64,000 nt of DNA from Cyanidioschyzon merolae (lineage: Eukaryota). The notes beneath the pieces were generated by a model. The model worked only from the letters and a program-made list of their open reading frames with translations, was not told where the DNA came from and did not search any database. The stretch's first letter is position 1. Each line of letters opens with the position of its first letter. The translations under genes and the position numbers were made by a program. The stretch is taken from NCBI GenBank assembly GCA_000091205.1, contig AP006488.2; one strand, 5' to 3'. This document shows positions 1-54,269 of this stretch, one piece after another.

Positions 1-27
1 CCCCATTCCCCCCATTCCCCCCATTCC
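1..27. repeat. Telomere-like C-rich short tandem repeat (CCCCATT / CCCCCCATT, 3 units) at the window edge
   Basis: The sequence 'ccccatt cccccc att cccccc att cc' is read directly at positions 1-27. The C-rich strand runs 5'->3' at a left end, which is the expected telomere orientation. Only about three units are present, and the following 3 kb is lower GC with no convincing genes. Confidence 0.3.
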
Positions 28-3336: not shown

Positions 3337-5520
3337 TCAGCAGGCAGCAGATATAACACTTACGCGAGCCTTCGTTAAAACACGTGCTGCACTCGTCCAA
3401 ATGTGATAGAGCCTTTCTGCATACGGCATGATACCCACAATACCCCCTGTGCCGAGCCCTGATGTCCATACCTTGCGCAGAGCATCGACCCGCGCAGGCC
3501 ACAACACTGCATGGGCCACGGCATGCGATGCGTACGTCCCGTAGCAGCTCACGAGAACACCGTCGACCGCAAGGCGCCCTGAGCGAGTCAACGGCGCATA
3601 GAGACCATTGTGCGTAACTAAAGTCTCGATTGCCACTACGGGGTCCGGCAGGTGCGCAGCAACGTCCAGCAGAGCGTCGCCAACGCGGATATCTTCCGCG
3701 AAAACTGCCACAACGGCGGTGGTACCCAACTCAAGGCTCCGACGTATGTGCTTCTGCTGCTGCTGCTTCTGTGAAATACACGAGAAAGCGGTCGTCATAC
3801 CGTAAAAGTCTCTAGAGTGTTCGATCATTCGATATACCAGATGCTGTCTCGTCAGACGCAGCTGCTTTCCGGAACGCGTCTTGATCGCAAGAATCTCTGC
3901 AGTAGCGCCGGCCTCGTTATGCAACCATCCTAGTACACTATCTTCGACCAGTTGCCCGCGCCCATTGACGCCCATTACGGCCATACCTGATCGAAGCTCG
4001 CTTATCTGCAGATGGTTGCCCAGACCATCGATGAGCACCGAGGCATCCGCGGGGAAGCAGACCGCAGAGCCTTCGCCTACAGCGGTCTGCGTCACATTTG
4101 TCGTTGCCGACGGTTCTGCAGTAACGGAGGGCGTCGGTGATGCCGTCGGAGTCGGTGTTGGTGTCGGCATAGGCGTCGGTGTTGCGATGTATAATGTGAA
4201 GAGATCGTTATAGCTACCGGAGCTGCCTTGACCTCCGAATAGAACCGGGTCGTTTTGATCGGTATCCCAAAGAACTGCACCGTATCGCGGAGGTGGAAGC
4301 GTTGTATTGCTTGTCTTGTTAAGCTCGCCGTAACTATATGCTCCATCCGTTGTATTGTCACCGTCTACCCAAGTCCATTCAAGACTCGTTATATTGAACG
4401 TCCACAGGTCGTTGCAGAAACCGGGTGAACTACCGCCGAAGAGATACAGGGTGTTCGTCGAGTCTGCAAATCCAGAAGAGCCAGCTCTGTACCCCGGAGT
4501 GTTGCTCGATGACGGCACTCCTTTCTCGCCGTATACTGCCCCATCCAAACCAACACTGTGATTTCCAGACATCCAAGTCCATTCTTTGGAGCTGATGTTG
4601 TACAGCCATAAATCATTGAGAAAGCCGCCATTTCCGTCAATCTGTCCATCACCGCCAAAGAGCCAAAAGTTCCCATCAAGGTCTCGCCACCATGTGGCTC
4701 CGAGACGTCCAGCGGGATAATTGCTCGGCGATGCCTGGCGAAACGTACCATAGCTTCCAGAGGGATTCTGCTGTTGAGTGCCACCTATCCAGCTCCATTC
4801 GTTGGTCACTGTGCTGTACTGCCACAAGTCACCGTAAAAAGGACCACTAGGATAAAATCCACCAAAGAGATAAAACTGGCCATCCAATCCAACCCAGGTC
4901 GCGGGTTGGAAACGAGCGCCAGGCGTGTTGCTTGAAGACGACTTCCCAAGAGGACCATATGTCGGGGGAACATTGGTCTTGCTGGATCCCTGCACCCAGG
5001 TCCACTCGCCCGACGATACATTATACATCCACATATCACTATAGCCCGAGTTCAAATTCCAGCCTCCATATAACCAAAGGTTTCCGTTGCTGTCACTCCA
5101 AGCAGCGGATTCCGTCCTCGAAGGCGGATAGTTGCTCTTGTTGGGAACTCCGAGGGAGCCGTATACCCCTCCAGAGTTGAGGGATGCAGAGCCTCCAACC
5201 CAGGTCCAAGAGAACGTGCTCAGATTGTAGTTCCAGAGATCACCGAAGACGTCTCTCAAGTCGCTGCCACCACCAAACAACCAGAGCACCCCGTCAGCGC
5301 CGGTCCAGAAGACCGCACCGTACCGCGCCGGAGGCACGTTGCTGGTGTTCCGCACACCCTGAACACCGTAGCTACCTGAACTGCCGGTAGAGTTACTGCC
5401 ACCGATCCAGGTCCATAAAAAAGTATCTTCGGAGGACAAAACTCCACGAACTGTGTGTGTGCCCGACACAACCAATACTATAACCAGGAGTCTCACAATA
5501 GAAAAATACCTTTTTCGCAT
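3337..5520 (-). CDS. Secreted Kelch-repeat (beta-propeller) protein with a Pro/Thr-rich linker and a C-terminal Hedgehog/intein-type Hint autoprocessing domain
   Basis: The 727-aa ORF is intact. Its N-terminus has a hydrophobic signal-peptide-like segment (MRKRYFSIVRLLVIVLVVSGTHTVRG). At least six repeats show the Kelch signature (LWLFGG ... NDLW/GDLW ... W.W). A PT linker (PTPMPTPTPTPTASPTPS) follows, then Hint motifs: 'G..AVCFPADASVLIDG' (Cys-1 block), 'TRQHLV' (TxxH) and 'LVTHNGLYAPLTRSGRLAVDGVLVSCYGTYASHAVAHAV' (C-terminal Hint block). Confidence 0.75.
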   Translation of the reverse strand: MRKRYFSIVRLLVIVLVVSGTHTVRGVLSSEDTFLWTWIGGSNSTGSSGSYGVQGVRNTSNVPPARYGAVFWTGADGVLWLFGGGSDLRDVFGDLWNYNLSTFSWTWVGGSASLNSGGVYGSLGVPNKSNYPPSRTESAAWSDSNGNLWLYGGWNLNSGYSDMWMYNVSSGEWTWVQGSSKTNVPPTYGPLGKSSSSNTPGARFQPATWVGLDGQFYLFGGFYPSGPFYGDLWQYSTVTNEWSWIGGTQQQNPSGSYGTFRQASPSNYPAGRLGATWWRDLDGNFWLFGGDGQIDGNGGFLNDLWLYNISSKEWTWMSGNHSVGLDGAVYGEKGVPSSSNTPGYRAGSSGFADSTNTLYLFGGSSPGFCNDLWTFNITSLEWTWVDGDNTTDGAYSYGELNKTSNTTLPPPRYGAVLWDTDQNDPVLFGGQGSSGSYNDLFTLYIATPTPMPTPTPTPTASPTPSVTAEPSATTNVTQTAVGEGSAVCFPADASVLIDGLGNHLQISELRSGMAVMGVNGRGQLVEDSVLGWLHNEAGATAEILAIKTRSGKQLRLTRQHLVYRMIEHSRDFYGMTTAFSCISQKQQQQKHIRRSLELGTTAVVAVFAEDIRVGDALLDVAAHLPDPVVAIETLVTHNGLYAPLTRSGRLAVDGVLVSCYGTYASHAVAHAVLWPARVDALRKVWTSGLGTGGIVGIMPYAERLYHIWTSAARVLTKARVSVISAAC

Positions 5521-6201
5521 ATAGGATACGAAAGGGGTTCTGCACCAGTCAAAAGTAAACGCCTCCCAGAGAAACGAGTTGCTTAGAATCTACAGGGATA
5601 GGAGAGCCTCCAGCTGCTGGTACTGTTGTCACTGCTGTCTCCGTCCGTACCACTACGAGCCTCCACGAAGTATTCTGAGGTAAGCAGCACGGGAGCGCGT
5701 CAAGCACCGCCGTCTGAGTGACGCAGATCTGCGCACGGCGCTCCCGCAACAGGACATTTCTATCATAAATGGACAAAGATATTTTGCAGCGTCTGCTACC
5801 GAGTTTCATGATGGCGCTCTCGTAATGGCAGCACAAGATAGTCGTCTACGCCGCAGTCGTATTTCAGATACCCATGCAGAGTCCAAACATCCAAAAAGGC
5901 TAATGGCGTGCCCGTCGCACATTCGGACCCGGCCTGATGTGCCCTAGTACGAAAAACTCCCTCTTTCTGCAGGCCATCTGCATATTTGTCGATGTCCAGT
6001 CTAGGGCTAAGTTTGGTGTCCAGATACCCTCAACATTGGATTGTGGGCCCCCAACCCGGACTGGAAGGTTGCGTGCATGCACGTGCGAACTATATTGTAC
6101 AACCACGTTCCTCATGGAATCAATATACCAATAACTGAAACATATTTTAGTTCTGTGTTCGCGCGCGGGGCCGTCCAGATAGCTGGCGTCAACGCAGTGG
6201 T

Positions 6202-7638
6202 TCATACTGAAGCACTTGCTGAGGCATGCGTCAAGGTCGACACCGATACCGACGCACTTGGAGACGCAGTTGCAGTCGCAATAACGGCACTCGGAGACCG
6301 TGTAGCACTAAACACCACACACTGCCTGTTGATGCACTCCTCGCCAGAGCGGCAGCAACGCACCTTGTTCACAAGGTTGTCCGAAGGCATCAGGTAGGTC
6401 CCGGACTGAACTGTAGGGTCCTTGCATACACAGAATGACGGCAACGGCACCTGTCGCTGCTGCTGCTGCTGCTGCTGTTGCACGGTATTGCTGTTGCTGA
6501 ACGGGTTTGACGTGCAGTTCTCCATCTCGGCGTTGCAGCGCTCCGGGCCGCACGGAATATACGTCGAGTTCGATACGTTGCCGGTCGTGCTGTTCAGCGA
6601 GTTCGAGACGTACCCATACGCCTGACAAACATACTCGGTAACCGGCTGGGAGCACTCGTTGCCGGGCCCCAGGCAGCAACCAGCCTCCAGACACTGCTGC
6701 GGCGGGTAGCTCGTGCGCTGCGTCCCGTGCTGCTCTCCGTAAAGGACCGTGTTCAGCAGACGCACAAACTGGTTATTGTTGATGTTATTGTTCAGCTGCT
6801 GGTTCTGATTCACCGCGTTCGTGCACGGCTGGCGCTCAAACTCGCCCACCGCGCACGTCTTCTCGGGCTGGAAGCAGTACGGGTTCGACGCAAAGTCGCT
6901 CTGCTGCTTGCCGTTCTGCACCCACTGGTTCTGCGCCTGCGAGTCGTAGCAGCAGCCCTGGGCATAGCACGTAAACTGGTTGATACCCGCGTTGCCGCAC
7001 GGCTGGCGCTGCGCTCCCGGTGACGGGCAGACGGGTACTGGTGCCTGCACCTCCTGCAGCGCTACAGAGGCCTGCGGTGCATGGTTGATGTCGTAGTAGC
7101 ACCAGGGTGCCAGGATGCCGTTCGCTGTGGGCTGCCAGCAGCATCCCGGTATCGCAGTGCACTCGTCGGGGTAGATGTAGCTCCAGCCGCAGGTGACGCG
7201 CTGCGTCACTTCAACAGCGCTGCACGCCGCTGAGACGCTCTTCAGGGTGCACGCGTTCGTCTGGGAGTTGAAGCAGCACCCGACTTGCTCGTAAGCGTCC
7301 TGGTTGATGCACTGTCCTGGAGATCCGCAGAGCTCATTGGAGCAGATGGGGGTAGGCGTCCGCGAAGTTTTTGGTGTTGGAGTAGGGAATGCTTTCCTCA
7401 ATGCAAACACATCATTGAGAAAGTCACTGCCGCTCGTGTTTATGTATCCAATTCCAACAAATACGATCGGATCAGTTCTACTAGTGTCCCAGAAAGCTGA
7501 TCCATAGCGAGTACTTGGTACACTATTCGGGCCTGACTCGCTCAATGCCCCATATACTGCTGGAGTATTCACTACCGAGCTTCCATTAATCCATACCCGT
7601 TGACCCAGTTTGATATCGAATACCCACAGATCGTTCAA
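6202..7638 (-). CDS. N-terminally truncated paralog of the Kelch protein carrying tandem trefoil (P-type)-like cysteine-rich domains and a polyQ tract; gene fragment or exon
   Basis: The 478-aa ORF has no ATG start; the first in-frame codon is TTG, preceded by a stop. Its N-terminus (NDLWVFD ... TPTPKTSRTPTP) parallels the last Kelch blade and PT linker of the 3337..5520 protein. It then carries trefoil-type motifs, for example 'CSAVEVTQRVTCGWSYIYPDECTAIPGCCWQPTANGILAPWCYYD' and 'CPSPGAQRQPCGNAGINQFTCYAQGCCYD...NPYCF'. A polyQ run (QQQQQQQQRQ) is present, encoded by (CTG)n on the plus strand. Confidence 0.45.
   Translation of the reverse strand: MNDLWVFDIKLGQRVWINGSSVVNTPAVYGALSESGPNSVPSTRYGSAFWDTSRTDPIVFVGIGYINTSGSDFLNDVFALRKAFPTPTPKTSRTPTPICSNELCGSPGQCINQDAYEQVGCCFNSQTNACTLKSVSAACSAVEVTQRVTCGWSYIYPDECTAIPGCCWQPTANGILAPWCYYDINHAPQASVALQEVQAPVPVCPSPGAQRQPCGNAGINQFTCYAQGCCYDSQAQNQWVQNGKQQSDFASNPYCFQPEKTCAVGEFERQPCTNAVNQNQQLNNNINNNQFVRLLNTVLYGEQHGTQRTSYPPQQCLEAGCCLGPGNECSQPVTEYVCQAYGYVSNSLNSTTGNVSNSTYIPCGPERCNAEMENCTSNPFSNSNTVQQQQQQQQRQVPLPSFCVCKDPTVQSGTYLMPSDNLVNKVRCCRSGEECINRQCVVFSATRSPSAVIATATASPSASVSVSTLTHASASASV
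6455..6478. repeat. (CTG/CAG)n microsatellite inside the coding region (polyQ)
   Basis: 'gctgctgctgctgctgctgttg' read directly in the sequence. Confidence 0.8.
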
Positions 7639-8281
7639 ACGACTGCAAGTGCGCTTCTATTGCCGTACCCCTCAAAGCAAAATGAGTTACAGATTACCCA
7701 AATAAACACGCTCTGCCCTCTTCAACGACCTCAGTTAGCATTCTCTGGCGCATTCGATGCGAAGTAGGTCATAGCTTTAGCTATATTAATCACTACTGCA
7801 GTACGCTTTATGACTTGCGAAGCAATTTTGGTTCTCCACATCAGGAGGAGTGCCCACCCATCCGTTCAATATCCGATCGTGACTGTGGGATGCCATCTCA
7901 TCGGTACGCTGTTGCTCCCACATGCGTCTTTGAAGCAGCGGTCTGCGCTTTGAAGGCGCATCTCATTTTCATCACTAACAAACCTTAGACAGGGGCCAAG
8001 ATAGTCGACTTGAGGCCTCGCCGCCGCAACGCCTGGTCGATCAGATCAAGACTCAGTTTCTATTGCTGATCTGCCGTGTCGATTTCGTACGTTAGTTCAA
8101 TAACCTGCGGTTTCGTGTTCTCTCGACCTTCCGTATATTAGCCACGCCACTGATAATACGAGCCCGAGTCAGAGAACTGCCCCTGGGTCGCCACTTCGGC
8201 TACGCGGCGGTCAACCTCATCATTCGGAACGTACTGCCTAGTGATGTACTTCTGAACAAGCGGGAAGAATACGTAGCGGAA

Positions 8282-9196
8282 TCAGCCACGCTTTTCGCGG
8301 AAGAGGTTGCTTTCGGCGACACATCCCGGGAAAATCGCCACAGAGGTCACCCCGTCGCGGCCGTATCGATCACTGAGCGCCTTCATTGTCAACAAGTTCT
8401 CGGCTTTGGCGTCTTTGAAAGCTTTTGTGGGCTCAAACGGGCCACTTTCTACCATGTCCGTCGTCTGCGGATCAAGCCCCGCGGCTAGGCCAGATATATC
8501 CCCGAGACGAGCCTGCGGGGGGATCTTTCCCGGCAGCGAATTCGGCGAGTGGGTCTGAGTCGTCAGAAACACAATGTGCCTGCGCGATATTTTCATCTTC
8601 GGCAACAGCTCCCGACAGAGAAGCAAATGGCTCAGATGGCAAACCTGCATAGTTTCCTCGATGCCGTCCACCCTGAAACGCGGTTTCTTGTCCCGCGGAT
8701 GCCATATTGTGGCATTGCAGATCAGGGTATCCAGGTGATCGACGCGCGCCACACTTGACAGCTCTCTTACAAACTTCAACACAGAGGCGAAATCAGCCAT
8801 ATCACAATGCAGCACTGTATAGGCGTCCTTTGGAAGGTTTACGCTATTCGCTGCGCGTTCCGCCAGGTCGACGTCACGACTTGCCATGACGATGTGCCCG
8901 TTGCCCTTGTTGATCAGAGCGCGAGCTGCATACAGACCGACCCCAGAGGACGCGCCAGTGATCACGGCGATCTGCGACTGTTTCGGGCCCATACGAAGAT
9001 GCAGCGCGTGGTGCCGGCGCGCTACAGGCGAGCGCTGCACCGCCAAGGGAAGCGGATGCTGACAGTGGTGACAATGTCCAGCTGCGAAGCACCCATCACG
9101 TGCGGTACGTAGCGGGAACGGTGCTCGAGTTGCAGCGCGCGCGCGAACAATGTGTCTTTCCTGGTACAACGGGACAAAAACGAAAAGAGCTTGCAT
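8282..9196 (-). CDS. Light-dependent protochlorophyllide oxidoreductase (POR)-like short-chain dehydrogenase whose catalytic Tyr is replaced by Phe
   Basis: The ORF encodes 304 aa. It has the SDR Rossmann motif 'ITGASSGVG'. Blocks align closely to LPOR: 'YTVLHCDMADFASV', 'LICNATIWHPRDKKPRFRVDGIEETMQVCHLSHLLL', and the POR-specific loop 'GKIPPQARLGDISGLAAGLDPQ...'. The tail 'LLTMKALSDRYGRDGVTSVAIFPGCVAESNLFREK' also matches. The YxxxK motif reads 'FKDAK' where POR has 'YKDSK'. A 68-aa N-terminal extension may be a targeting peptide, or the start is the internal 'MGPKQSQ'. Confidence 0.7.
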   Translation of the reverse strand: MQALFVFVPLYQERHIVRARAATRAPFPLRTARDGCFAAGHCHHCQHPLPLAVQRSPVARRHHALHLRMGPKQSQIAVITGASSGVGLYAARALINKGNGHIVMASRDVDLAERAANSVNLPKDAYTVLHCDMADFASVLKFVRELSSVARVDHLDTLICNATIWHPRDKKPRFRVDGIEETMQVCHLSHLLLCRELLPKMKISRRHIVFLTTQTHSPNSLPGKIPPQARLGDISGLAAGLDPQTTDMVESGPFEPTKAFKDAKAENLLTMKALSDRYGRDGVTSVAIFPGCVAESNLFREKRG

Positions 9197-9579
9197 TTTC
9201 TTGGATTAGATTTCCTCTGGTGCAAAGCTGCTGAACGCGCCACCAACTAGAGACGTTCGCTCAAGCATGCGTATCCAGTCAAAAACCTCTTTTGCGTAGC
9301 TGCAAGAGTGATCGCCCGTCAATGGTCCAGAGTCTGACCCATATCTCCCGTAGACTGCATAGCGTTGAGCACATCTAGCACAAGTGCTCAATGTCTTTCT
9401 GAGAAACTAGGCAAAACTCCTATGCTTCCCATCAACAACCTCATCAGCAGTTAGTGCCAAGGGTTCCGCAGTGCTGCGCTCAGATATCTAAACGACCGTT
9501 CACGAACGTCGACGTGGCTCTCCGACGAATACCGTAGAGGAGGTATAAGGGAATATCCTCCGGTGGTATGTTATTTTGG

Positions 9580-9685
9580 AAGCGTCTGCACGTCAGTTGG
9601 AGACGTCATGTTTAGGGCGGGTCACTCGCCACTACCGTGCACCGCGGGCAGCAGCGTTTTTCTTTTCAAAAGCATTTTTTGTCGG
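9580..9685 (+). mobile_element. Solo 3'-terminal fragment of the Fanzor/TnpB-like element family (conserved right-end module only)
   Basis: 'cgtctgcacgtcagttggagacgtcatgtttagggcgggtcactcgccactaccgtgcaccgcggg...gcgtttttcttttcaaaagc' matches the conserved 3' ends of the copies at 13140, 22060, 28270 and 32620. No upstream ORF is present. Confidence 0.5.
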
Positions 9686-10665
9686 CTGTGTCTCTTCCGG
9701 GCTCGATGTATGGGTTAGTCTCCTGAAACTAATCTTATAGAGTAGATCAGAATTCAGTATGCTTTTTTTGGCGGGTTCCTCGATCGTTCCAGGTGAGATG
9801 CGTTGGTCAAGCGCTGTGCTACGTATGAACGCTCTATGTATGCTATGCCTCTACCAAGATCACAGGATCCGGGAGAGTAGCGGGCACCATAACTTGGACA
9901 ACGACGATAGCATGGAAATGACTTGAACTGCCATCAGTTCCAGAACATGACGCAGGATAGAAGCACAATTCAGGTCAGTTCCTTATTCCAGCGTCCGTGC
10001 CGCATGCATAACAAGCACCGGGATTAAACGTATATCCGTGTTCAGCAATCCTACCGTGCCTTGTTTGTTTACGATCAATACAACTAACGAAACTCTTCAA
10101 GGCTAGAGTGATGCGTACCTTATCCACACAAGTGTAAGCCGCAGAGAACGCTACGCTTTTGATAGAAGCATCACGGGGTATCTCGCCAGGCCCCAACATC
10201 CCCTTGTACGTCAGGTCGGTACGGCGATGGGCGGTAGCGTCAGCACCACCGCCAGAGCCTATGCCAAGAGATCATTCTACGTGAGTTTCCAATCTACGAT
10301 ACTTTATTCCAGCTGCAGTGCGGTGCGAATACGCATATGCCAAGGCGGTGTCGGACACGTGTCCTTCATGGATCGGTGCAGCGTCTCGCGCGGTGCACGC
10401 ATCGCGCTCAGGGAGCACGCCTCGGAGATCAGGTAGTCAACTGACACGACGCGCATGCCGCCGTTGAAGGGAAACGCGATCCTAGTAACGAGCGTGTTGT
10501 TCTAACAGAAAAAGTTGGATTTCCGTTGGAGTCGAAGCAAAGTACAATTTTTCAGTTCATTTTTGTTTCAGCCCTCAAACAAGTCTAGTCAAGTGCTTTC
10601 TTGCAATACATAATAGAAGGGTTCGAAGCTGGTTCTTTTTCAAAAATACCTAAAAAAGAGGAGCT

Positions 10666-13166
10666 ATGAAAAAGCAAGTCCACGATCCTGAAGCGCCATT
10701 GTCGCCGGCTGCCAGAAAAACAAATACAGTGCCGAGTCCCGACGAAGAGCAAAAGAAAAAGAAGCAAAGGGGGAGGCCCTATGTCGATCGCGGCAAGAAA
10801 GACGACTGTACGACGAGATAGTGTTGAACGCCTGACTTCTTAAACATATCAAGGATCCCTACAGGGAAAAGTTGCGAGACGCTATCGAAAACCGTGTCGA
10901 CTCGTACTCCAAGAGTCTTTTCAAGGCTTCGTCAGGACTGATGCATTTGGCGAGGGAGATGTATCGCGACGTGACGGACATGGCAACCATCGAGATTCCG
11001 GACGAGTTCTTCGACAAGACCTTTATTCGTCACCTGATGCATGGTACAGCGGGAACGTGGAGGGAAAACGTGCTAGTGCATGTTCTCCACGAAAACTTCG
11101 CGGAATTCCGCTTCGAGGGTGCTCGGTACAGCGGTGACTCGCATATTTACACATACGGGGCAATGAAGTTCATCACGAACCTGAAGAACCATTTGACAGA
11201 GAACCTCGAATGTTTCATGATACGCACCGCGTTTGCACTCTACCCGGGCATCTCTCGCAAGGGGATATGGTCGATTATCAATGGCATCACGAACGATCGC
11301 AAGCATGAAGGTGAGGTCGAATTCGTCGGCAAGAAGACGTCAAAAGGGAGCACGAATGAAGCTTCTGCAACCCGTGCGGCTATACAAGAGCACCGTGCAG
11401 TCTTGGGGCTGGTGAATCCAACAGACAAGATATCAAAGTTGGAGAAAGATAAGGAAAGATACTATCGCCTCTTCCTGCGGCATTTTGTGTTTCTGGACCG
11501 AGAGCTCGAACGCAAAGTGGAGATGAAGCTGAGTGAAGAGACAAATGAAGAGTGGGAAAGACGGAAGGCTTTCCTAATGGGGAAGCGCTTCGACGTGGTT
11601 CCGTTGTGCAACATCAAGGCACATTTTGTGACTATCGACTCCGCGGTCCTTTACGGCATCATAAAGGAGATCAGTGCGGAGTTCAATATTCGTAGGGAGC
11701 ACTTCACCGGCGAAAACCAGGAGACGTACTGGAAGAAGATCTTCGGTTTCAAACGTCTCAAAACGAGCAAGCAAAAGGTATTCGCTGGGATGATTGAAAC
11801 CGATGGAGTAAACGTGTGTGTACACTATCGGCGGCTGAAGCAAGATCGTCCAGTCCCACTCCCCGCTGCGCCCTCGATGAAGCATGAAGATGAGAATGAG
11901 TCGGATCCTGCCACGCAGGAGGTAGAGGATACTGATCTTGTCGTTGGCGTGACGAACGATGAAGATGAGCAGGAGGCTGGTCCTGCGACGCAGGAGGTGG
12001 AGGATAACGAGCTTGCCGTTGACGCAGCGGAGCATGAAGAAAACCAAGAGGCGGGTCCTGCGACGCAGGCGGCGGAGGATAACGACTTTATCGTTGACGT
12101 GACGAAGGATGATCATGGGAAGGAAGCGGATCCTGTGATGCAGGAGGTGCATGATGACGCCTTTATGGTTGGCGCGGCGAAGCATGAAGAAAACAAGAAG
12201 GTGGGCCCTGCGACCCAGAAAGTGCAGGATAAGGACTTTGTCGTTGGCGCGGACCCTCGGAATACGAATATCATTACCATCGCAGCACCGAAGCGTGCGG
12301 AAGATGGTACTGATGGTAACTTACGTCAGAAAGACATGCGTCTTTTGAGGTTCACGAGAGAGAGATACTATCGAGAATCGGGAATCATGAATGCGAGGAA
12401 ACAATTCGAGACTTGGAAGTCAGGAATGAAAGATCACCTGGAAGCTTCGAGCTAGGTGACGAGCCGAGGAGCGCACTTTGAAGCTTTTCGGAAAGTCATG
12501 GAAGGTCGCATGACGCACTGGGATACGCTGTGGAAGGAGTATACCAAGCCCCGGTGGGCTCGTTTCCGAATGAATTTGTATTGTGGGAAGCAGCGGGCGG
12601 TGGCGAATTTTTTCAATCAGTTGAATGCCTTGATGGACGATAACAGTCAGAGGCTCGTAGTAGCGTATGGGGCAGGGCGCTGGAACACTCAAAAAGGAAC
12701 TTCGCCAGCTCCAACGACGAGGGTGTACAAGGAGTGCGCACGTCGTTTCGTTACAATACGGGTAGACGAGTTCCGAACGTCCTATACTCACCATGAGCTG
12801 GGTTGTACACTTCAGAGGGTGAAGATGGAAAAGTACCAGAAGAGCCCTGAGGAAATAGCAAAGTACGGACCGCTGACGGAAGAGCAAATGGAAAGGAGGG
12901 CGAAAGTTCGTGGACTACTCGCATTAGTAAGTACAACCAGTGATGGCAAGAAACGGATGGATTTCGTGAACCGAGAGTTTAATGCCGCAATCAATATAAG
13001 GAGATTGGCGGTGCTAGAGAAAAGACCTCCAGAGTGGACAAGAGAGAACTTTATTGGACAATCACTCAAAGTCGATTTATATGAGAAAGAATTGGAATCA
13101 GTAGTAGGTGACCGGTCCAAAAAGGCGGCGAGGCGTCTCCACGTCAGTTGGGGACGTTTTGTCTAG
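10666..13166 (+). pseudogene. TnpB/Fanzor-like nuclease ORF of copy 1, disrupted: frameshift and TGA near the N-terminus and an in-frame TAG at 12453..12455
   Basis: Two adjacent ORFs (10872..12455 and 12456..13166) lie in the same frame and are separated only by a TAG. The sibling copy has GAG at that position. The N-terminal exon-like ATG at 10666 is out of frame with the main ORF, and a TGA lies in the continuing frame. The RuvC-III 'NAAINI' motif is intact. Confidence 0.6.
11898..12257 (+). repeat. In-frame tandem array (5 x about 69-72 bp) duplicating the acidic '[14 protein letters not shown]' segment that ends in the RuvC-I motif
   Basis: The protein repeats are '[25 protein letters not shown]', '[25 protein letters not shown]', '[25 protein letters not shown]', '[26 protein letters not shown]' and '[19 protein letters not shown]'. 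Copies 3 and 5 carry a single unit. Confidence 0.7.
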
Positions 13167-14246
13167 GGCGCGGTTTTCCCGCCACTACTGTACACCGTTG
13201 GCGTCGTTCGACTTTCGAGCGGCGTTTGGTGTGGCCGTGCGCGGGAAGACGTCCATCATTCCATCTCCTTCCGAGTCTCAAAGCCCATGCTTCTTCTCGG
13301 ATATACTGGTCGTTTCGTATACTCTATCGAGTGACCGTGCATGCCTTGCCGCATCCGCTCCAGTAGTTTAAACGCTTGTGCGGGGTGTACAAAGTAGGTA
13401 TGGCGCACGATACAACGTACGCAACGACCAGCATATCAGAGAGGAATCACGAGGAATGCAACGATAAGGCAGGATGCATCACGATAGACGCTTTCCCGAA
13501 AGACAATATCCATCTACCCCGCAATCTGGGATCCATGGTCCATGGAAACGTGCTGCTACTGGAAAGAAAAACGAACGGGTGTGCGCGGCTGCCGTCTGTT
13601 CAACGTAGTTTCGTATTTCGTTCTTTTCTAGGTGGTGTAACGGAACTGTCTGCGGAAAATGACAGAGGAGTCCGCGGTGGAAGCTCGGCGTGTATCCTGC
13701 GAGGATTCCGAGCCCGAGGGATCGCCTTCGGCAGCCGCGCGGTCAGAGCAGGATACCGAGACGCCCGTCAGCACGAACGCCACAGGCACGCGACTCAACT
13801 GGAACACGCAGGCACCTGCAGTGACGAACGACGGCTGGCAAACAGCAGCGAGCGTATGCTCTAGTTCCGGTTCTGCGCTTGGTGAAGCGTTCACTCCAGA
13901 CGCTGCGCCTTCGCACGTAGGTACTGGAGCCGCAGCTCGTAGTGTTATGGCGACTGCCTCGGTTGAGAACAGTGTTCACTCCTTATCTGAGTCACCAATA
14001 AGCTGGAAAACACGCTTGAATGACCTTTAGGAGCGTCTCCTTCCCTGGATTCCCGAGCGAATGGCTTCCTTTTTCTACCGTCAGGCAACGCGCTGGCTGC
14101 CGACTCTCGTGCAGCGACTTCGATCAGCCTACGCCAAATCGCTTGAACCCATGGACGCTGTCGTTCATCTCTACAGGGGCATTGTTCCGACTTTTGATCA
14201 TCTTCCCGCAGAGGGCCGGGCGCCAACACAGATTCTCGCCGACCTG

Positions 14247-20978: not shown

Positions 20979-21172
20979 CTCTCTAACAGAACTGGGAGCG
21001 TCTAGTCCACACGAGTGGAGAATTTAAACCTTTGAAGTAGTCTGCAGCGAACTACAGTACGACATTTGAAATAGATGAAGACTTGAGTGTGAGACGCCTG
21101 AAAGGCGAGCAGGGCAGAGCGCTCGCAGTCAAACAGAACGTTGAGATGCAAAGCGTGGTGCGCAGGTAAAGG

Positions 21173-22165
21173 TTGTCGTTGGCGCGGACCCGGAAACTCA
21201 AATATCGTTACCGTCGCAGTACCCAAGCGTGTGGCAGATGGTACTAACGGCACCTTACATCAGACAGACATGTGTCTTTTGAGGTTCTCGAGAGCAAGAT
21301 ACGATCGAGAATCCGGTATGATCAATGCAAGGAAGAAAATTGAGACATGGAATGCAGGAATGAAGGATCACCTGCAAGCTTTGAGCGAGGTGAGGAGCCG
21401 AGGAGCGGACTTTACAGATTTTCGGGAATTCATGGAAGTTCGCGTTGCTCATTGGGACGCGCTGTGGGAGGATTATACAAAGCCCAGGTGGGCTCGTTTG
21501 CGAATGAATCTGTACTGTGGGAAGCAGCGGGCGTTCGCCAACTTTTTCAATCAGGTGGGCGCCCTCAAGGAGATTGAAAGTCAGAGGCTCGTCGTAGCGT
21601 ACGGAGCAACGCGCTGGAAGACCCAAAAACGGGACTATGCCAGCTCCAACGACAAGAACGTACAAGGAGTGTGCACGGCGTTTCGCTGCGATACCTGCAG
21701 ATGAGTTTCGAACATCGTATACACACCACGAGCTGGGATTTACACTTCAGAGAGTCGAGATGGAAACGTGCCAACGAAGCCATGAGGAAATAGCAAACTA
21801 CGGACCGCTGATGGGAGAGCAAATGGATAAGAGAGCGAAAGTTCGTGGACTACTTGCGCTGGTGAGCGCAACCAAAGATGACAAGAAACGTATGGTATTA
21901 GTGAACCGAGACTTTAACGCCGCTACGAATGTAAAGAGATGTACGGTGACAGATAGAAGACCTCCAGAGTCGACAAGAGAGAACTTTGTTAGACAATCAC
22001 TCAAAGTGGAACTATATGAGAAACAGTTGGAAGCAGTTGTAGGTGACCGGTCCAAAAGGCTGGGAGGCGTCTGCACGTCAGCTGGGGATTTCTTGTCTAG
22101 GGCGGGCTTCTCGCCACTACTGTACACCGCTGGCGACAACGTTTTGCTTTTGAAAGGCGTTTTGT
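21173..22165 (+). mobile_element. Fanzor/TnpB-like element copy 2 (family A; 5'-truncated, begins at the RuvC-I 'VVGADP' segment; frameshifted)
   Basis: Homology begins at 'gttgtcgttggcgcggaccc'. ORFs 21141..21704 and 21637..22353 lie in different frames, with the same +1 insertion as copies 3 and 4. The 'VNRDFNAATNVKR' RuvC-III-like motif and the conserved 3' end are present. Confidence 0.7.
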
Positions 22166-25800: not shown

Positions 25801-25929
25801 TCGTGAATCGTGAGTCTCTGTTCTTTGTTCTAAATAACGCTGTCGAGTTGTGCACCTCCATATTTGAAAGGCATGAAATACAATGCGCTTTTCACAGTGG
25901 AAGAGAAACGTAGTCCTGACCATTCGTTG

Positions 25930-28350
25930 ACGTGTTGTTCTACCGGAAAAAGTTGTATTCGCGTTGGAGTCGAAGCAAAGTACAATTTTTCAGTTCATTT
26001 GTGTTTCAGCCCTCAAACATGTCTAGTCGAGTGTTTTCTTGCAATATATAATAGAAGGATTCGAAGCTGGTTCTTTTTCAAAAAAAATAAAAAAAGGAAA
26101 GTCATAGGAAAGCAAGTCGGCGATCCTGGAGGCCCAGGATCGCCGGCTGCCAGAAAAACAAATACAGTGCCGAGTCCGGACGAACAGCAAAAGAAAAAGA
26201 AGCAAAATGTGAGGCCCTACGTCGAAGGCTGCAAGAACGACAACTGTACAACGAGATAGTGGTGAAAACCTCTCTTCTTGGACATATCAAGGATCCCTAT
26301 AGGGAAAAGTTGCGAGGCGCTATCGAAAACCGTGTCGACTCGTAACCCAAGAGTTTTGTCAAGGCGTCTTCCGGACTGATGCATTTGGCGAGGGAGATGT
26401 ACAAATACGTGACGCACATGGAAACGGTCGACATTCCGGACGAGTTCTTCGACAAGACGTCTTTTCGATACCTGATGCATGGTACAGCGGAAACGTGGAG
26501 GGAAAATGTGCTAGTGCATGCTCTTTACGAAAAATTCGTGGAATTCCGATTCGAGGGTGCTTGGTACAGGGGTGACTCGCATATTTACACATACGGGGCA
26601 ATGAAGTTCATCACGAACCTGAAGAACCATTTGACAGAGAACCTCGAATGTTTCATGATACGCACCGCGTTTGCACTCAACCCGGGCATCTCTCGCAAGG
26701 GGATATGGTCGATTATCAATGGCATCACGAAAGATCGCCAGCATGAAGATGACGTCGAATTTGTCGACAAGAAGACGTCAAAAGGGAGCACGAATGAGGC
26801 TTCTGTAACCCGTGCGGCTATACAAGAGCACCGTGCAGTCTTGAGGCTGGTGAATCCAACAGACAAGATATCAAAGTTGGAAAAAGATAAGGAAAGATAC
26901 TATCGCCTCTTCCTGCGGTATTTTGTGTTTCTGGACCGAGAGCTCGAACGCAAAGCGGAGATGAAGCTGAGTGAGGAAAAATGAAGAATGGGAAAGACGG
27001 AAGGCTTTCCTAATGGGGAAGCGCTTGGACGTGGTTCCGTTGTGCAACATCAAGTCACATTTTGTGACTATCGACTCCAGATCCCTCACGACATCACGAA
27101 GGAGATCAGTGCGGAGTTCAATATTAGTCGCGAGGACTTCACCGGCGAAAACCAGGAGACGTACTGGAAGAAAATCTTCGGTTTCAAACGTCTCAAAACG
27201 AGCAAGCAAAAGGTATTCGCTGGGATGATTGAAACCAATGGAGTAGCCGTGTGTGTACACTATCGGCGGTTGAAGAAAGATCGTCGAGTCCCACCCCCCG
27301 CTGCGCCCTCGACGAAGCATGAAGATGAGAATGAGTCGGATCCCGCCACGCAGGAGGTGGAGGATACTGATCTTGTCGTTGGCGCGGACCCCGGACACAT
27401 CATTATCATCAACATCGCAGCACGGAAGCGTGTGGCAGATGGTACTAACGGCACCTTACATCAGACAGACATATGTCTTTTGAGGTTCTCGAGAGCAAGA
27501 TACGATCGAGAATCCGGTATGATCAATGCAAGGAAGAAAATTGAGACATGGAATGCAGGAATGAAGGATCACCTGCAAGCTTTGAGCGAGGTGAGGAGCC
27601 GAAGAGCGGACTTTACAGCTTTTCGGAATTTCATGGAAGTTCGCGTTGCTCATTGGGACGCGCTGTGGGAGGATTATACAAAGCCCAGGTGGGCTCGTTT
27701 GCGAATGAATCTATACTGTGGGAAGCAGCGGGCGTTCGCCAACTTTTTCAATCAGGTGGGCGCCCTCAAGGAGATTGAAAGTCAGAGGCTCGTCATAGCG
27801 TACGGAGCAACGCGCTGGAAGACCCAAAAACGGGACTATGCCAGCTCCAACGACAAGAACGTACAAGGAGTGTGCACGGCGTTTCGCTGCGATACCTGCA
27901 GATGAGTTTCGAACATCGTATACACACCACGAGCTGGGATTTACACTTCAGAGAGTCGAGATGGAAACGTGCCAACGAAGCCATGAGGAAATAGCAAACT
28001 ACGGACCGCTGATGGGAGAGCAAATGGATAAGAGAGCGAAAGTTCGTGGACTACTTGCGCTGGTGAGCGCAACCAGTGATGGCAAGAAACGTATGGTATT
28101 AGTGAACCGAGACTTTAACGCCGCTACCAATGTAAAGAGATGGACGGTGACAGAAAGAAGACCTCCAGAGTCGACAAGAGAGAACTTTGTTAGACAATCA
28201 CTCAAAGTGGAACTATATGAGAAACAGTTGGAAGCAGTTGTAGGTGACCGGTCCGAAAAGGCTGGGAGGCGTCTGCACGTCAGGTGGAGACGTCGTGTCT
28301 AGGGCGTGTTTGCCACTACTGTACACCGCTGGCCGCAGCATTTTTCTTTT
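25930..28350 (+). mobile_element. Fanzor/TnpB-like element copy 3 (full-length mosaic: family-B-like 5' half plus family-A 3' half; multiple frameshifts)
   Basis: The 5' end is 'cgtgttgttctaccggaaaaagttg', followed by a TATA 'tatataatag' and then the MHLAREMY... N-terminal half, about 90% identical to copy 1. The RuvC half is near-identical to copies 2 and 4 ('[32 protein letters not shown]...'). ORFs 26379..26984, 26988..27905 and 27838..28302 lie in three frames. Confidence 0.7.
26045..26054 (+). promoter_or_regulatory. TATA-box-like sequence (TATATAATAG) upstream of the element-internal ATG
   Basis: Read directly in the sequence. The equivalent position in copy 1 reads 'cataatag', about 50 bp before 'atgaaaaag'. 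Confidence 0.3.
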
Positions 28351-29242
28351 GAATGGCGTTTATTTTTTAGGCGACGACCACAAGCCTGTTCCCTAGTCAT
28401 CGGTCGTACGCGCGACTCCTCGGAAGTTTGGCTATAATCAGCGCGCCCCTCTAGCAAAACAGTCGAGTCGGCACCAGATGCGCCCGAGAGGCCCCGCGCC
28501 GACCTTCAACCTATTCTCGCTAACCAAAAGTTGAATACCTGCTCTGCAGCTGTTCGATCAGCTACCTCGACAGAGTAGAGGTCGATAAGCGCTCTTTCAC
28601 GATGAACTACCAGGTCATGCGCAAGTCACGCACCCTACGCTTTCGTGCTATCCGCAAAACCTGCTATCTTCCAAGCGTAGCGGCTTGCGGACCATCAAGG
28701 CAACTATGCGCTGAAATTCCGCCTCTTGTACCGTTGAACAACTTCCCTGAATGCTTCGCGCCATCGAGAAGCATATTCATGTATCGTGCGCCTGCAAGAA
28801 GCGGTTCCAACACTTCATACCGACTCAGTGGGTCCTCGACCGCAATCAAGTTCAGATTTCCGGACACAGCGTCCGCCTACGCATGAAAAACGGCCTCCAA
28901 GTCTGTTGTCGCGTGCTGTTTTTGAGGCAATGAGGAACCGCGGATGCATTGCTCGTCCACTGAGCAGTCGCGTGCGCCAGTATCGAGGACGCGTGCCGTT
29001 CTCGCAGCAAAAGAACCAGTCTGTCGGAGCGTCTCCTACTATTCCACGATACTCCAGCGGAAAAAGAGCGACTCTTCGCCCCTGTCGACGAATTGGCGCC
29101 CCGGGCGACGCTTTACGCACTTCGAGCGCTCCATGAGAGCAACCGTGAATCCCAACTGTCCCAGTTTACGATCATCGCTGGCACGGTTCAAACCGCAGTG
29201 CCCCGCCAGTTAGCAAGTTATGTCGTGAGATATTCGGAGGAA

Positions 29243-31726: not shown

Positions 31727-32707
31727 TGGCGGCCGACCCCAGAAACACAATTTCATAACCATCGCAGCACGGAAGCGTGTGGCAGATGGTACTAACGGCA
31801 CCTTACATCAGACAGACATGTGTCTTTTGAGGTTCTCGAGAGCAAGATACGATCGAGAATCCGGTATGATCAATGCAAGGAAGAAAATTGAGACATGGAA
31901 TGCAGGAATGAAGGATCACCTGCAAGCTTTGAGCGAGGTGAGGAGCCGAGGAGCGGACTTTACAGCTTTTCGGGAATTCATGGAAGTTCGCGTTGCTCAT
32001 TGGGACGCGCTGTGGGAGGATTATACAAAGCCCAGGTGGGCTCGTTTGCGAATGAATCTGTACTGTGGGAAGCAGCGGGCGTTCGCCAACTTTTTCAATC
32101 AGGTGGGCGCCCTCAAGGAGATTGAAAGTCAGAGGCTCGTCGTAGCGTACGGAGCAACGCGCTGGAAGACCCAAAAACGGGACTATGCCAGCTCCAACGA
32201 CAAGAACGTACAAGGAGTGTGCACGGCGTTTCGCTGCGATACCTGCAGATGAGTTTCGAACATCGTATACACACCACGAGCTGGGATTTACACTTCAGAG
32301 AGTCGAGATGGAAACGTGCCAACGAAGCCATGAGGAAATAGCAAACTACGGACCGCTGATGGGAGAGCAAATGGATAAGAGAGCGAAAGTTCGTGGACTA
32401 CTTGCGCTGGTGAGCGCAACCAGTGATGGCAAGAAACGTATGGTATTAGGGAACCGAGACTTTAACGCCGCTACCAATGTAAAGAGATGTACGGTGACAG
32501 AAAGAAGACCTCCAGAGTCGACAAGAGAGAACTTTGTTAGACAATCACTCAAAGTGGAACTATATGAGAAACAGTTGGAAGCAGTTGTAGGTGACCGGTC
32601 CGAAAAGGCTGGGAGGCGTCTGCACGTCAGGTGGAGACGTCGTGTCTAGGGCGTGTTTGCCACTACTGTACACCGCTGGCCGCAGCATTTTTCTTTTGAG
32701 TGGCGCT
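31727..32707 (+). mobile_element. Fanzor/TnpB-like element copy 4 (family A; 5'-truncated at the same point as copy 2; same frameshift)
   Basis: Homology starts at 'gctggcggccgacccc...catcgcagcacggaagcgtgtggcagatgg'. ORFs 31779..32252 and 32185..32649 are more than 98% identical to the copy 2 and copy 3 peptides. The conserved 3' end is '...gtctagggcgtgtttgccactactgtacaccgctggccgcagcatttttcttttgag'. Confidence 0.7.
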
Positions 32708-32954
32708 CGTTATTGGTTTGCGGTGCAGGCTCACTCCTCAGTGCAATCTCTAATCCGTTGGCACTTATCTGCCGCAGACTCGAGTGGACACGCTGAGAAC
32801 TGGTGTTGAAAAAGGCCGAAGCTGAGAGCCGGCTCCCAAGCTGCTCGCACTCGACAGCGTTTCTCGTTTGCACTTTGGCTACGGCCAGCGCTGTTCTCGG
32901 CTGATGCGTTCCTCCACAGGGTGTCGCACGGAGTTTTCATAACCGCCTCCCTTC

Positions 32955-53390: not shown

Positions 53391-54269
53391 AGAAAGTACA
53401 AAGAGTTGATTGGTAACTGCTATGCCGCTCCAAACTCACTCAGGTGCGTTATGGGGTACACTACGTAAACGAGTCGGTATGCGAGCGAACAACAGCGCGA
53501 GCGACTCAGTTTTCTCGATGCCAAAACGTTTAGATTGACCAAAGATCCCAGATTGCGGGATGCGTATTGATGATCGAAAAAGCGTCCACCATGCTGCAGC
53601 ACCCTACCTCCAAGTTCTATTTTTCGCACTTCCTTTCAGATATACTGGTTATTTCTTAGGTTCTGATTTGCACCTAACATGCCATGAGCACCCGTCCTGG
53701 CGCATATACCGCTGGTGCAGATGCATCACGGAGACGGAAAAGCTTTTCCAGCACCACCACTGAGGGCGTCGAATCGAGGAACGCTTCACCTGGTACGGAT
53801 TCGCAGTACATAGTCATGCTGAAGGCCTGCGAGCAGCGCAGACAGACCTACAGCCTGCGGCAGCGAGAAGCGGCATGCCAGGTGTCCACCGCGAACAGGG
53901 CGACGCTCAGAGGCGTCATACCCGCTGCGAGCTCCTGAATGAACTGCGTTGCGGACAAACTGCTCACATCTCACTACAGCATCCGTCAATTGCGGGGGCG
54001 GGAGGCGGGTATGCAGCGCTAGCCCGGGAGACTCGTTCAGCTCGCGGGACCTTCCGCTAGTACAGTGAACTTTTGACAATATGGAAACTTGTTCCCCATG
54101 TAACGTTTCTTGTGGTGGTGAAAAGAGATTCTAGTCTCGTTGCTATCTAGTGGTTAGTTTCTGTTCTTCTCTCTATAGAGCGGTCCGTACGTGCTCTCCG
54201 ATATCAGGAAGGTACGAAACGCGACGCGCATCTCGCCGTTACACATCAACGCTATCCTGATGATTAGCG

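Follow-up and report, generated by a model that had tools for sequence, protein, structure and literature searches.

The window analysed here is a 64,000-nucleotide stretch of the red alga Cyanidioschyzon merolae 10D (GenBank assembly GCA_000091205.1, contig AP006488.2). The subject is an open reading frame (ORF) at 6202..7638 on its minus strand, flanked by CMF001C, an intact gene that joins a Kelch propeller to a Hint domain (K+Hog), and by a gene resembling protochlorophyllide reductase (POR-like). Telomere repeats, (CCCCCCATT)n, occupy positions 1-27, and the first letters of the window, CCCCATTCCCCCCATTCCCCCCATT, are the complement of the repeat unit AATGGGGGG given for C. merolae telomeres in the account of chromosome ends by Nozaki et al. 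(2007, PMC1955436). Because of these repeats and the identity of the neighbouring gene as CMF001C, the window is the left end (6L) of chromosome 6. The ORF thus lies 6.2-7.7 kb from the telomere repeats, in the subtelomeric setting of the Kelch-linker-trefoil (K+T) family. On the comparisons given below it is most probably a non-functional, 5'-truncated, unprocessed pseudogene of a K+T gene within the PH element, and it is referred to as the relic.

In the description of the PH element by Nozaki et al. (2007, PMC1955436), P is a protochlorophyllide-reductase-like and H a hedgehog-like gene, and the element occurs at eight chromosome ends of strain 10D (6L, 7R, 8L, 8R, 11L, 14R, 18R and 19R). 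Both genes are found at 6L in the window, H being CMF001C at 3337..5520 and the P-like gene lying at 8141..9196, in the same order (telomere, H, P) as in that description; it names P and H only, whereas the window also has the trefoil relic between the two.

Kelch remnant and trefoil modules of the relic

Read from a TTG codon, the ORF encodes 478 amino acids and ends at a TGA (6202-6204). From stop to stop the frame comprises 484 codons (6205..7656, minus strand), bounded upstream by a TAG at 7657-7659. There is no usable ATG in this frame, methionines occurring only at codons 378 and 423, and the ORF has neither the signal peptide expected of a K+T protein nor any other hydrophobic leader. 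Its first ~87 residues form a single Kelch blade, the last of the propeller, which shares 38% identity with the terminal blade of the Kelch-Hint ORF next to it (residues 370-443; 79 residues, E=2e-13) and 68% with that of P0180 (CME001C), an intact C. merolae Kelch-trefoil protein. The features of the relic are as follows.

7657..7712, minus strand: decayed piece of the penultimate Kelch blade, identified by aligning the window to the two edges of the 3.6 kb that metagenome contigs L011 and L021 have in addition; in-frame TAA, TGA and TAG
7396..7656, minus strand: open remnant of the last Kelch blade (KRTCSRLNDLWVFDIKLGQRVWINGSS...FLNDVFALR); 38% to CMF001C, 68% to P0180
7351..7395, minus strand: short Pro/Thr linker KAFPTPTPKTSRTPT; matches the Thr/Pro/Ala-rich linker of the Kelch/Trefoil/Hint family (Cho et al. 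2023, PMC9812998)
7246..7350, minus strand: module 0, degenerate trefoil-like; no PF00088 match; third conserved Cys replaced by Tyr, extra Cys six residues upstream
7093..7224, minus strand: module 1, canonical trefoil (P-type) domain CSAVEVTQRVTCGWSYIYPDECTAIPGCCWQPTANGILAPWCYY; PF00088 43.4 bits, E=3e-11
6865..7029, minus strand: module 2, trefoil with a 24-residue last loop; PF00088 32.0 bits, E=1.1e-7, full profile 1-43
6646..6855, minus strand: module 3, degenerate trefoil-like; no Pfam match; Cyanidium caldarium counterpart 14.2 bits, below the cut-off
6319..6627, minus strand: C-terminal Cys-rich region, non-trefoil, including the Q8 run at 6451-6480; PECC replaced by PERC, KQCG by VQSG
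6202..6318, minus strand: Ser/Thr/Ala-rich tail and TGA stop (6202-6204), from the translation

Upstream of the ORF, Kelch homology continues to about position 7708, interrupted by three in-frame stops; beyond it the flank of the POR-like gene joins directly. Segment 7657..7712 translates as AERVYLGNL*LILL*GVRQ*, where full-length genes have DSLGNLQLFGGEG...SFGYLNDL, also given as SLGNLQLFGGEG...SFGYLNDL. In place of a complete propeller, the last blade and a stop-ridden fragment of the preceding one remain. The linker that follows is much longer in contigs L011, L004 and L021 than the KAFPTPTPKTSRTPT of the relic. Peptides spanning PERCNAEMENCTS or DPTVQSGTYLMPSDN would be unique to the relic ORF. 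Past the linker, the relic is colinear throughout with P0180, L009, L011 and the C. caldarium protein P0006, at 53-90% identity.

The whole ORF and its single modules were scanned with the Pfam Trefoil profile PF00088, for which the gathering cut-off is 21 bits. The whole ORF matched with 48.5 bits (E=7.8e-13). Modules 1 and 2 carry the six-cysteine pattern C-x9/10-C-x9-C-x4-C-C-x(~10)-C with its CG, GCC[FWY] and WC motifs, and in both the six cysteines line up with those of TFF2 and TFF3; module 0, with Tyr as its third cysteine, and module 3, with a 42-residue second loop, do not. The counterpart of module 0 in C. caldarium scores 21.6 bits. Among PDB sequences, the six cysteines of module 1 align with those of TFF2, TFF3, TFF1 and the P-domain of maltase-glucoamylase (E=4e-7 to 6e-4). 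Modules 1 and 2 have the six-cysteine pattern and the CG, GCC[WY] and WC motifs in common with vertebrate TFF peptides and the P-type domains of GH31 glucosidases, but differ from these in belonging to a red alga, in lying C-terminal to a Kelch propeller and in their loop lengths, as in the last loop of module 2. The trefoil fold is defined by three loops held by 1-5, 2-4 and 3-6 disulfides; an AlphaFold2 model of residues 103-446 (mean predicted local distance difference test score 39, predicted template modelling score 0.28) was too poor to be used for fold or disulfides. Two length variants were observed among the copies: an Asn/Gln-rich insertion of ~28 residues (NQNQQLNNNINNNQFVRLLNTVLYGEQHGTQRT) in module 3 is present in Cyanidioschyzon-type copies and absent from C. 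caldarium, and the polyglutamine run differs in length, with a 3-base gap near 6483.

These results agree in most points with the initial annotation of the locus, made from the sequence alone, which had described an ORF that starts inside a Kelch blade, is preceded by a stop without ATG or signal peptide, and continues through a Pro/Thr linker into several trefoil patterns where its neighbour has Hint, plus polyglutamine. The polyglutamine run reads QQQQQQQQRQ (6451-6480). Trefoil modules do take the place of the Hint domain (PF01079) of CMF001C, and the PF00088 scan proposed there gave a match above the cut-off. Of the several trefoil patterns, those of modules 1 and 2 proved genuine, and modules 0 and 3 are degenerate.

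Full-length counterparts and the 5' truncation

A protein search returned metagenome relatives of the relic at 85-88% identity; the named relative is the C. caldarium 'trefoil factor' CDCA10G3079, which has its own signal peptide and a Ser/Thr linker but no Kelch repeats. A scan of metagenome contigs then gave 16 loci. In L009, L011, L014 and L021 a single frame begins with an ATG and a signal peptide (MFRARSL...LLLAATFSVSLVAA) and encodes several Kelch blades, a Pro/Thr or Ser/Thr linker, and the trefoil and Cys-rich modules. Several Kelch repeats were found in L011 and L009 by tblastn, and Kelch families by Pfam.

Contig L011 aligns to the window on both sides of the truncation. Its positions 5194-6969 correspond to window 9499..7725 on the side of the POR-like gene (84% identity), and its positions 11058-14119 to window 7355..4289, covering the trefoil region, the spacer and CMF001C (92%). 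Between these flanks, ~3.6 kb (6970-10593) is without counterpart in the window, and the last ~1.1 kb of this segment is the 5' part of the gene, an ORF of 865 amino acids with signal peptide, Kelch and trefoil modules whose 5' end lies inside the extra sequence. L021 independently shows an arrangement like that of L011. In the junction alignment the window switches from left to right flank near 7709-7725, so that within common flanks the 3.6 kb that carry the start of the gene in L011 and L021 are gone. The 2.4 kb upstream of the full-length gene (L011 6970-9413), absent from the window, have a longest ORF of 146 amino acids; a promoter region and a degenerate element are both conceivable.

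Nine further contigs (L002, L003, L006, L007, L008, L012, L015, L016 and L018) match the window colinearly on both sides of the junction; two more, L010 and L013, are colinear as well but start inside the ORF, which brings the truncated contigs to at least 11. Since the nine span one common junction, they trace back to a single deletion event. With eight PH ends in each genome, the eleven or more truncated contigs are probably a mixture of strains and paralogous chromosome ends.

The initial annotation had offered two explanations for the missing 5' end, a truncated duplicate or a gene with upstream exons that had escaped detection. The first holds, 3.6 kb of the L011 and L021 locus being missing here. 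The second fails on the three stops in the upstream Kelch homology and its direct join to the POR-like flank. Because L011 and L021 carry the full-length gene within the same flanks and a dead but recognisable Kelch segment fills the first 50 bases past the junction, the aligned sequences indicate that the ORF is what a deletion left behind, with no exons hidden upstream. The three minus-strand frames of 7640-8140 were also read as a source of a hidden exon; they hold short ATG-led ORFs without a signal-peptide-like leader, and the POR-like gene ends ~500 bp upstream. A tblastn search of the 64-kb window with both ORFs, the relic and its Kelch-Hint neighbour, found no further copies of either.

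Decay of the truncated copies and competing readings

Disabling lesions in the truncated contigs differ from copy to copy, which points to independent decay. In L003 the Kelch remnant is broken by a stop and frameshifts; L007 has a premature stop, L012/L016 a frameshift and a stop, L015 a frameshift and three stops, L018 a frameshift in module 0, and L013 a stop at the first cysteine of module 1. Stops and frameshifts are many in these sister copies; in the window copy the stops are confined to the upstream remnant, three conserved cysteines are gone and the frame is otherwise open.

Cysteine conservation was assessed on 35 columns defined on the full-length copies themselves; these cysteines are shared with C. 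caldarium (55% identity), and every full-length copy retains all of them. Four more contigs with an intact-type trefoil start, outside the column definition, have lost 0 of the 57 cysteine positions they cover. Truncated copies have each lost between 0 and 8, the largest loss (8, together with the stop) being that of L013, the contig closest to the window at 95% DNA identity. In the window copy 32 of 35 are kept, three are replaced (C to Y in module 0, PECC to PERC, and KQCG to VQSG, a C to S change) and two cysteines are gained. The conserved cysteine spacing claimed initially is therefore right for the 32 retained family cysteines and breaks down at the three replaced and two extra ones.

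Selection was estimated as the ratio of nonsynonymous to synonymous substitution rates (dN/dS), by the Nei-Gojobori method, in the trefoil region between orthologous and paralogous copies. These copy-to-copy ratios replaced a Ka/Ks comparison of the two adjacent genes, for which synonymous sites are saturated at 38% amino acid identity over 79 residues. Between full-length copies dN/dS was 0.10-0.18; among truncated copies the median was 0.34 (range 0.22-0.56). The Kelch remnant gave 0.87 between the window and L002, and the range in off-frame controls was 0.9-1.3. When the shift from intact to truncated pairs was put to Fisher tests, p values ran from ~4e-5 to 0.3, depending on the pair. On these ratios, selection on the truncated copies appears relaxed, with a signal that is not fully neutral. 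Values below the neutral level could stem from young age, from divergence that preceded truncation or from exchange with intact copies.

The copy of the relic at chromosome end 8R is annotated as a gene, CMH282C (BAM79920.1, P0140, 373 amino acids). It is the same truncated relic in another PH element, beside the K+Hog gene CMH283C as the window relic is beside CMF001C; both copies have the C to Y change in module 0, and neither has a signal peptide. They differ in that a frameshift in the Kelch remnant of CMH282C has created an in-frame ATG (MFKHACSDF...), which is why that copy, ending at CINNE*, was annotated; the window copy has no ATG, and its position has no listed protein gene. A recent expression study (Plant Cell 2026, PMC13353863) lists CMH282C as a 'T' variant without signal peptide, at 25-70 transcripts per million (TPM) and without diploid bias; for intact K+T genes such as CME001C and CMD191C, diploid values go up to 300-600 TPM, against 20-60 in haploids. 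Because CMH282C is low and unbiased where intact K+T genes are diploid-biased, the relics have lost the parental regulation together with the 5' end. The expression table of that study has no protein gene between CMF001C and CMF007C, so that both the relic and the POR-like gene are unlisted. As CMH282C, which has no signal peptide, was counted as 'T-only', pseudogenes may be among the T-variant genes tallied for C. merolae.

Beyond the observed truncation, shared junction, intact counterpart, sister lesions and apparently relaxed constraint, we infer that the window copy makes no functional protein. In the mechanism suggested by the alignments, the ancestral order would have been POR-like gene, K+T gene, K+Hog gene; one deletion of ~3.6 kb would have taken away the promoter region, the start codon, the signal peptide and the Kelch propeller except for its final 1.2 blades; the shortened block would then have been copied to several chromosome ends, where the copies would since have drifted with some sequence exchange among family members. 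An origin of the PH element by such a deletion was not found in the description of the element by Nozaki et al. (2007, PMC1955436).

Several observations weigh against the pseudogene interpretation. The frame of the window copy is open across 484 codons. Its trefoil part has a dN/dS of 0.42-0.45 against L002, compared with the truncated median of 0.34; this is well under 1 and near the 0.50 of the intact neighbour, and such low values may equally fit some remaining constraint, a recent origin or recent conversion by intact copies. The truncated sister copies L002 and L006 keep 35 of 35 cysteines. The 8R twin CMH282C is transcribed, though reads may map to several copies. Finally, the metagenome contigs may mix strains or paralogous ends, and some, such as L014, may be chimeric assemblies.

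One alternative, itself unlikely, is that the truncated trefoil copies at the eight PH ends form a silent archive, exchanging segments by gene conversion with the expressed diploid-phase K+T surface-protein genes and so diversifying the family. If true, it would account for the open frames and for dN/dS below 1, and the subtelomeric, multi-copy location suits it. Mosaic blocks of variants hint at exchange among copies: PERC, VQSG and GPGNECSQ occur in the window, L013 and L014, and a HHQPYGNAGINQFTYY block in L007, L008, L018 and L013. Synonymous divergence (dS) within either class, truncated or intact, is at least as great as between the two. In L014 (608-3076) an intact 5' half with signal peptide and Kelch is joined to a 3' half 95% identical to the window relic, with the PERC lesion and an in-frame stop (CL*AGCC), which is either gene conversion between an intact and a truncated copy or a chimeric assembly. 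Chimeric assemblies could mimic the other metagenome mosaics as well, and no donor-to-acceptor event was shown within any single genome. Moreover, since intact copies keep 35 of 35 cysteines, the lesions have not been transferred into them.

That the relic is a working 'T-only' gene was judged very unlikely. Its trefoil part would have to be expressed without Kelch by starting at a non-AUG codon, from an unseen exon further upstream or by read-through out of the POR-like gene, giving a cytosolic or unconventionally secreted product. The 484-codon frame, the dN/dS of the trefoil part and the annotation and transcription of CMH282C would fit such a gene, and C. caldarium has a genuine T-only gene, P0006. 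However, the C. caldarium protein has its own ATG and signal peptide, the relic has neither, and the start codon of CMH282C, derived from a frameshifted Kelch remnant, yields no signal peptide. With its many disulfides, a trefoil protein would not be expected to fold outside the secretory pathway, and introns are very few in C. merolae. The stops and frameshifts at varied places in the trefoil region of sister copies, and the three conserved cysteines gone from the window copy, also argue against a working gene.

Recent local module exchange, as read in the initial annotation, in which the adjacent Kelch-Hint gene was duplicated and its Hint domain replaced by trefoil modules, would suit two adjacent genes on the same strand that both run from Kelch through a Pro/Thr linker to a C-terminal module, but is scarcely credible because the relic blade matches the intact K+T gene CME001C at 68% identity and the neighbour at 38%, the Kelch domains of K+T and K+Hog proteins are ~37% identical over 478 amino acids, relatives hold a full-length K+T gene at this position, and K+T and K+H combinations are spread across three Cyanidiales genera. 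C-terminal module exchange thus stands at the level of the family, where the alternation of Hint and trefoil is old and already published (PMC9812998, PMC13353863), and not between these two genes, which on blade identity appear to be old paralogs that happen to adjoin.

The parent family, neighbouring genes and repeats

In the Cyanidiales family described by Cho et al. (2023, PMC9812998), Kelch is joined through a Thr/Pro/Ala-rich linker to trefoil or Hint, and K, T, H, K+T and K+H variants are duplicated in the subtelomeres of three genera. K+T genes, marked SP(Sec/SPI), are expressed mainly in the diploid and K+Hog genes mainly in the haploid phase (Plant Cell 2026, PMC13353863). The family, its linker, its domain combinations, its subtelomeric duplication and the PH element are all already published, and the relic appears to be an unannotated member; both studies (PMC9812998, PMC13353863) count annotated genes, whereas the protein-gene table has no entry for the relic. 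Its significance hardly extends past annotation, except that the PH element becomes readable as a derivative of the order POR, K+T, K+Hog minus ~3.6 kb. Since the element would be such a deletion derivative, every PH end should carry a trefoil relic.

CME001C (BAM79243.1, P0180, 901 amino acids, 'similar to trefoil factor') shares with the window copy the last blade, the type of Pro/Thr linker, four modules, the Cys-rich end, polyglutamine and a Ser/Thr tail. The trefoil part of the window copy is ~90% identical in DNA to that of L009, the metagenomic equivalent of CME001C. The window copy lacks the ATG, signal peptide, full Kelch propeller, 35 of 35 cysteines and strong diploid bias of CME001C. 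The Kelch head is probably the variable, fast-evolving part, last blades differing by ~25-30% (by eye) between genes that are otherwise 90-95% identical.

Judging by its domains and the literature, the parent family is probably a secreted, extracellular glycoprotein built of a Kelch propeller, an O-glycosylated linker and lectin-like trefoil modules. The Pro/Thr linker is likely to be an O-glycosylated stalk, and the trefoil modules would resemble lectins in the way TFF peptides do. Expression in the diploid phase suggests that the protein may serve the cell wall or extracellular matrix when cells are walled. The window copy is unable to enter the secretory pathway, so this function does not apply to it. 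A tie between the loss of the gene and the wall-less C. merolae cells was considered and rejected, 10D having intact K+T genes that are expressed in the walled diploid phase. Two unusual gene calls were seen in the metagenome: in L005 (59-1228) the C-terminal half of a trefoil protein is fused in frame to an RPL39/C2-domain gene, and in P0004 two short GTQRT/VTQRV repeats are joined with the modules between them deleted. These are either real subtelomeric rearrangements or assembly chimeras.

The remaining features of the PH element in the window are as follows.

1..27, no strand: telomere repeat (CCCCCCATT)n; chromosome end
3337..5520, minus strand: intact Kelch-Hint (K+Hog) gene CMF001C, with signal peptide, Kelch propeller, Pro/Thr linker and Hint; Pfam Kelch families and Hint PF01079 (E=1.4e-31)
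8141..9196, minus strand: POR-like short-chain dehydrogenase, the P of PH; Pfam adh_short (E=8e-20); in-frame TGA at 8282-8284

The ORF at 3337..5520 matches BAM79404.1 ('similar to hedgehog protein'), which is CMF001C, at 100% identity. This gene is classed as K+Hog and marked as having a signal peptide; its expression is strongly biased to haploids, at ~375-420 TPM against 10-14 in diploids, the opposite of the K+T genes (Plant Cell 2026, PMC13353863). The POR-like gene is probably a second pseudogene in the block. Its stop stands in the context FREKRG*FRYVFFPLVQKYITRQYV..., at a codon where L011 has Arg, and the L002 copy is interrupted at another point, by an in-frame TAG that corresponds to window position 8467. 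The POR that is well expressed, CMG217C, lies at another genomic site.

Further into the window, a repeated element of ~2.8 kb lies at 10421-13231, with copies at ~21162-22165, 25897-28364, 31727-32712 and 54219-56637 that are ~65-83% identical. Pfam and PDB sequence searches gave no match for its ORFs at 10872..12455 and 12456..13166, which end in a TnpB/Fanzor-like motif, NREFNAAINIRR. On the strength of this one motif and the literature, the repeat fits the Fanzor1-bearing element CMe-1A, of which ~150 copies are reported in C. merolae (Bao & Jurka 2013).

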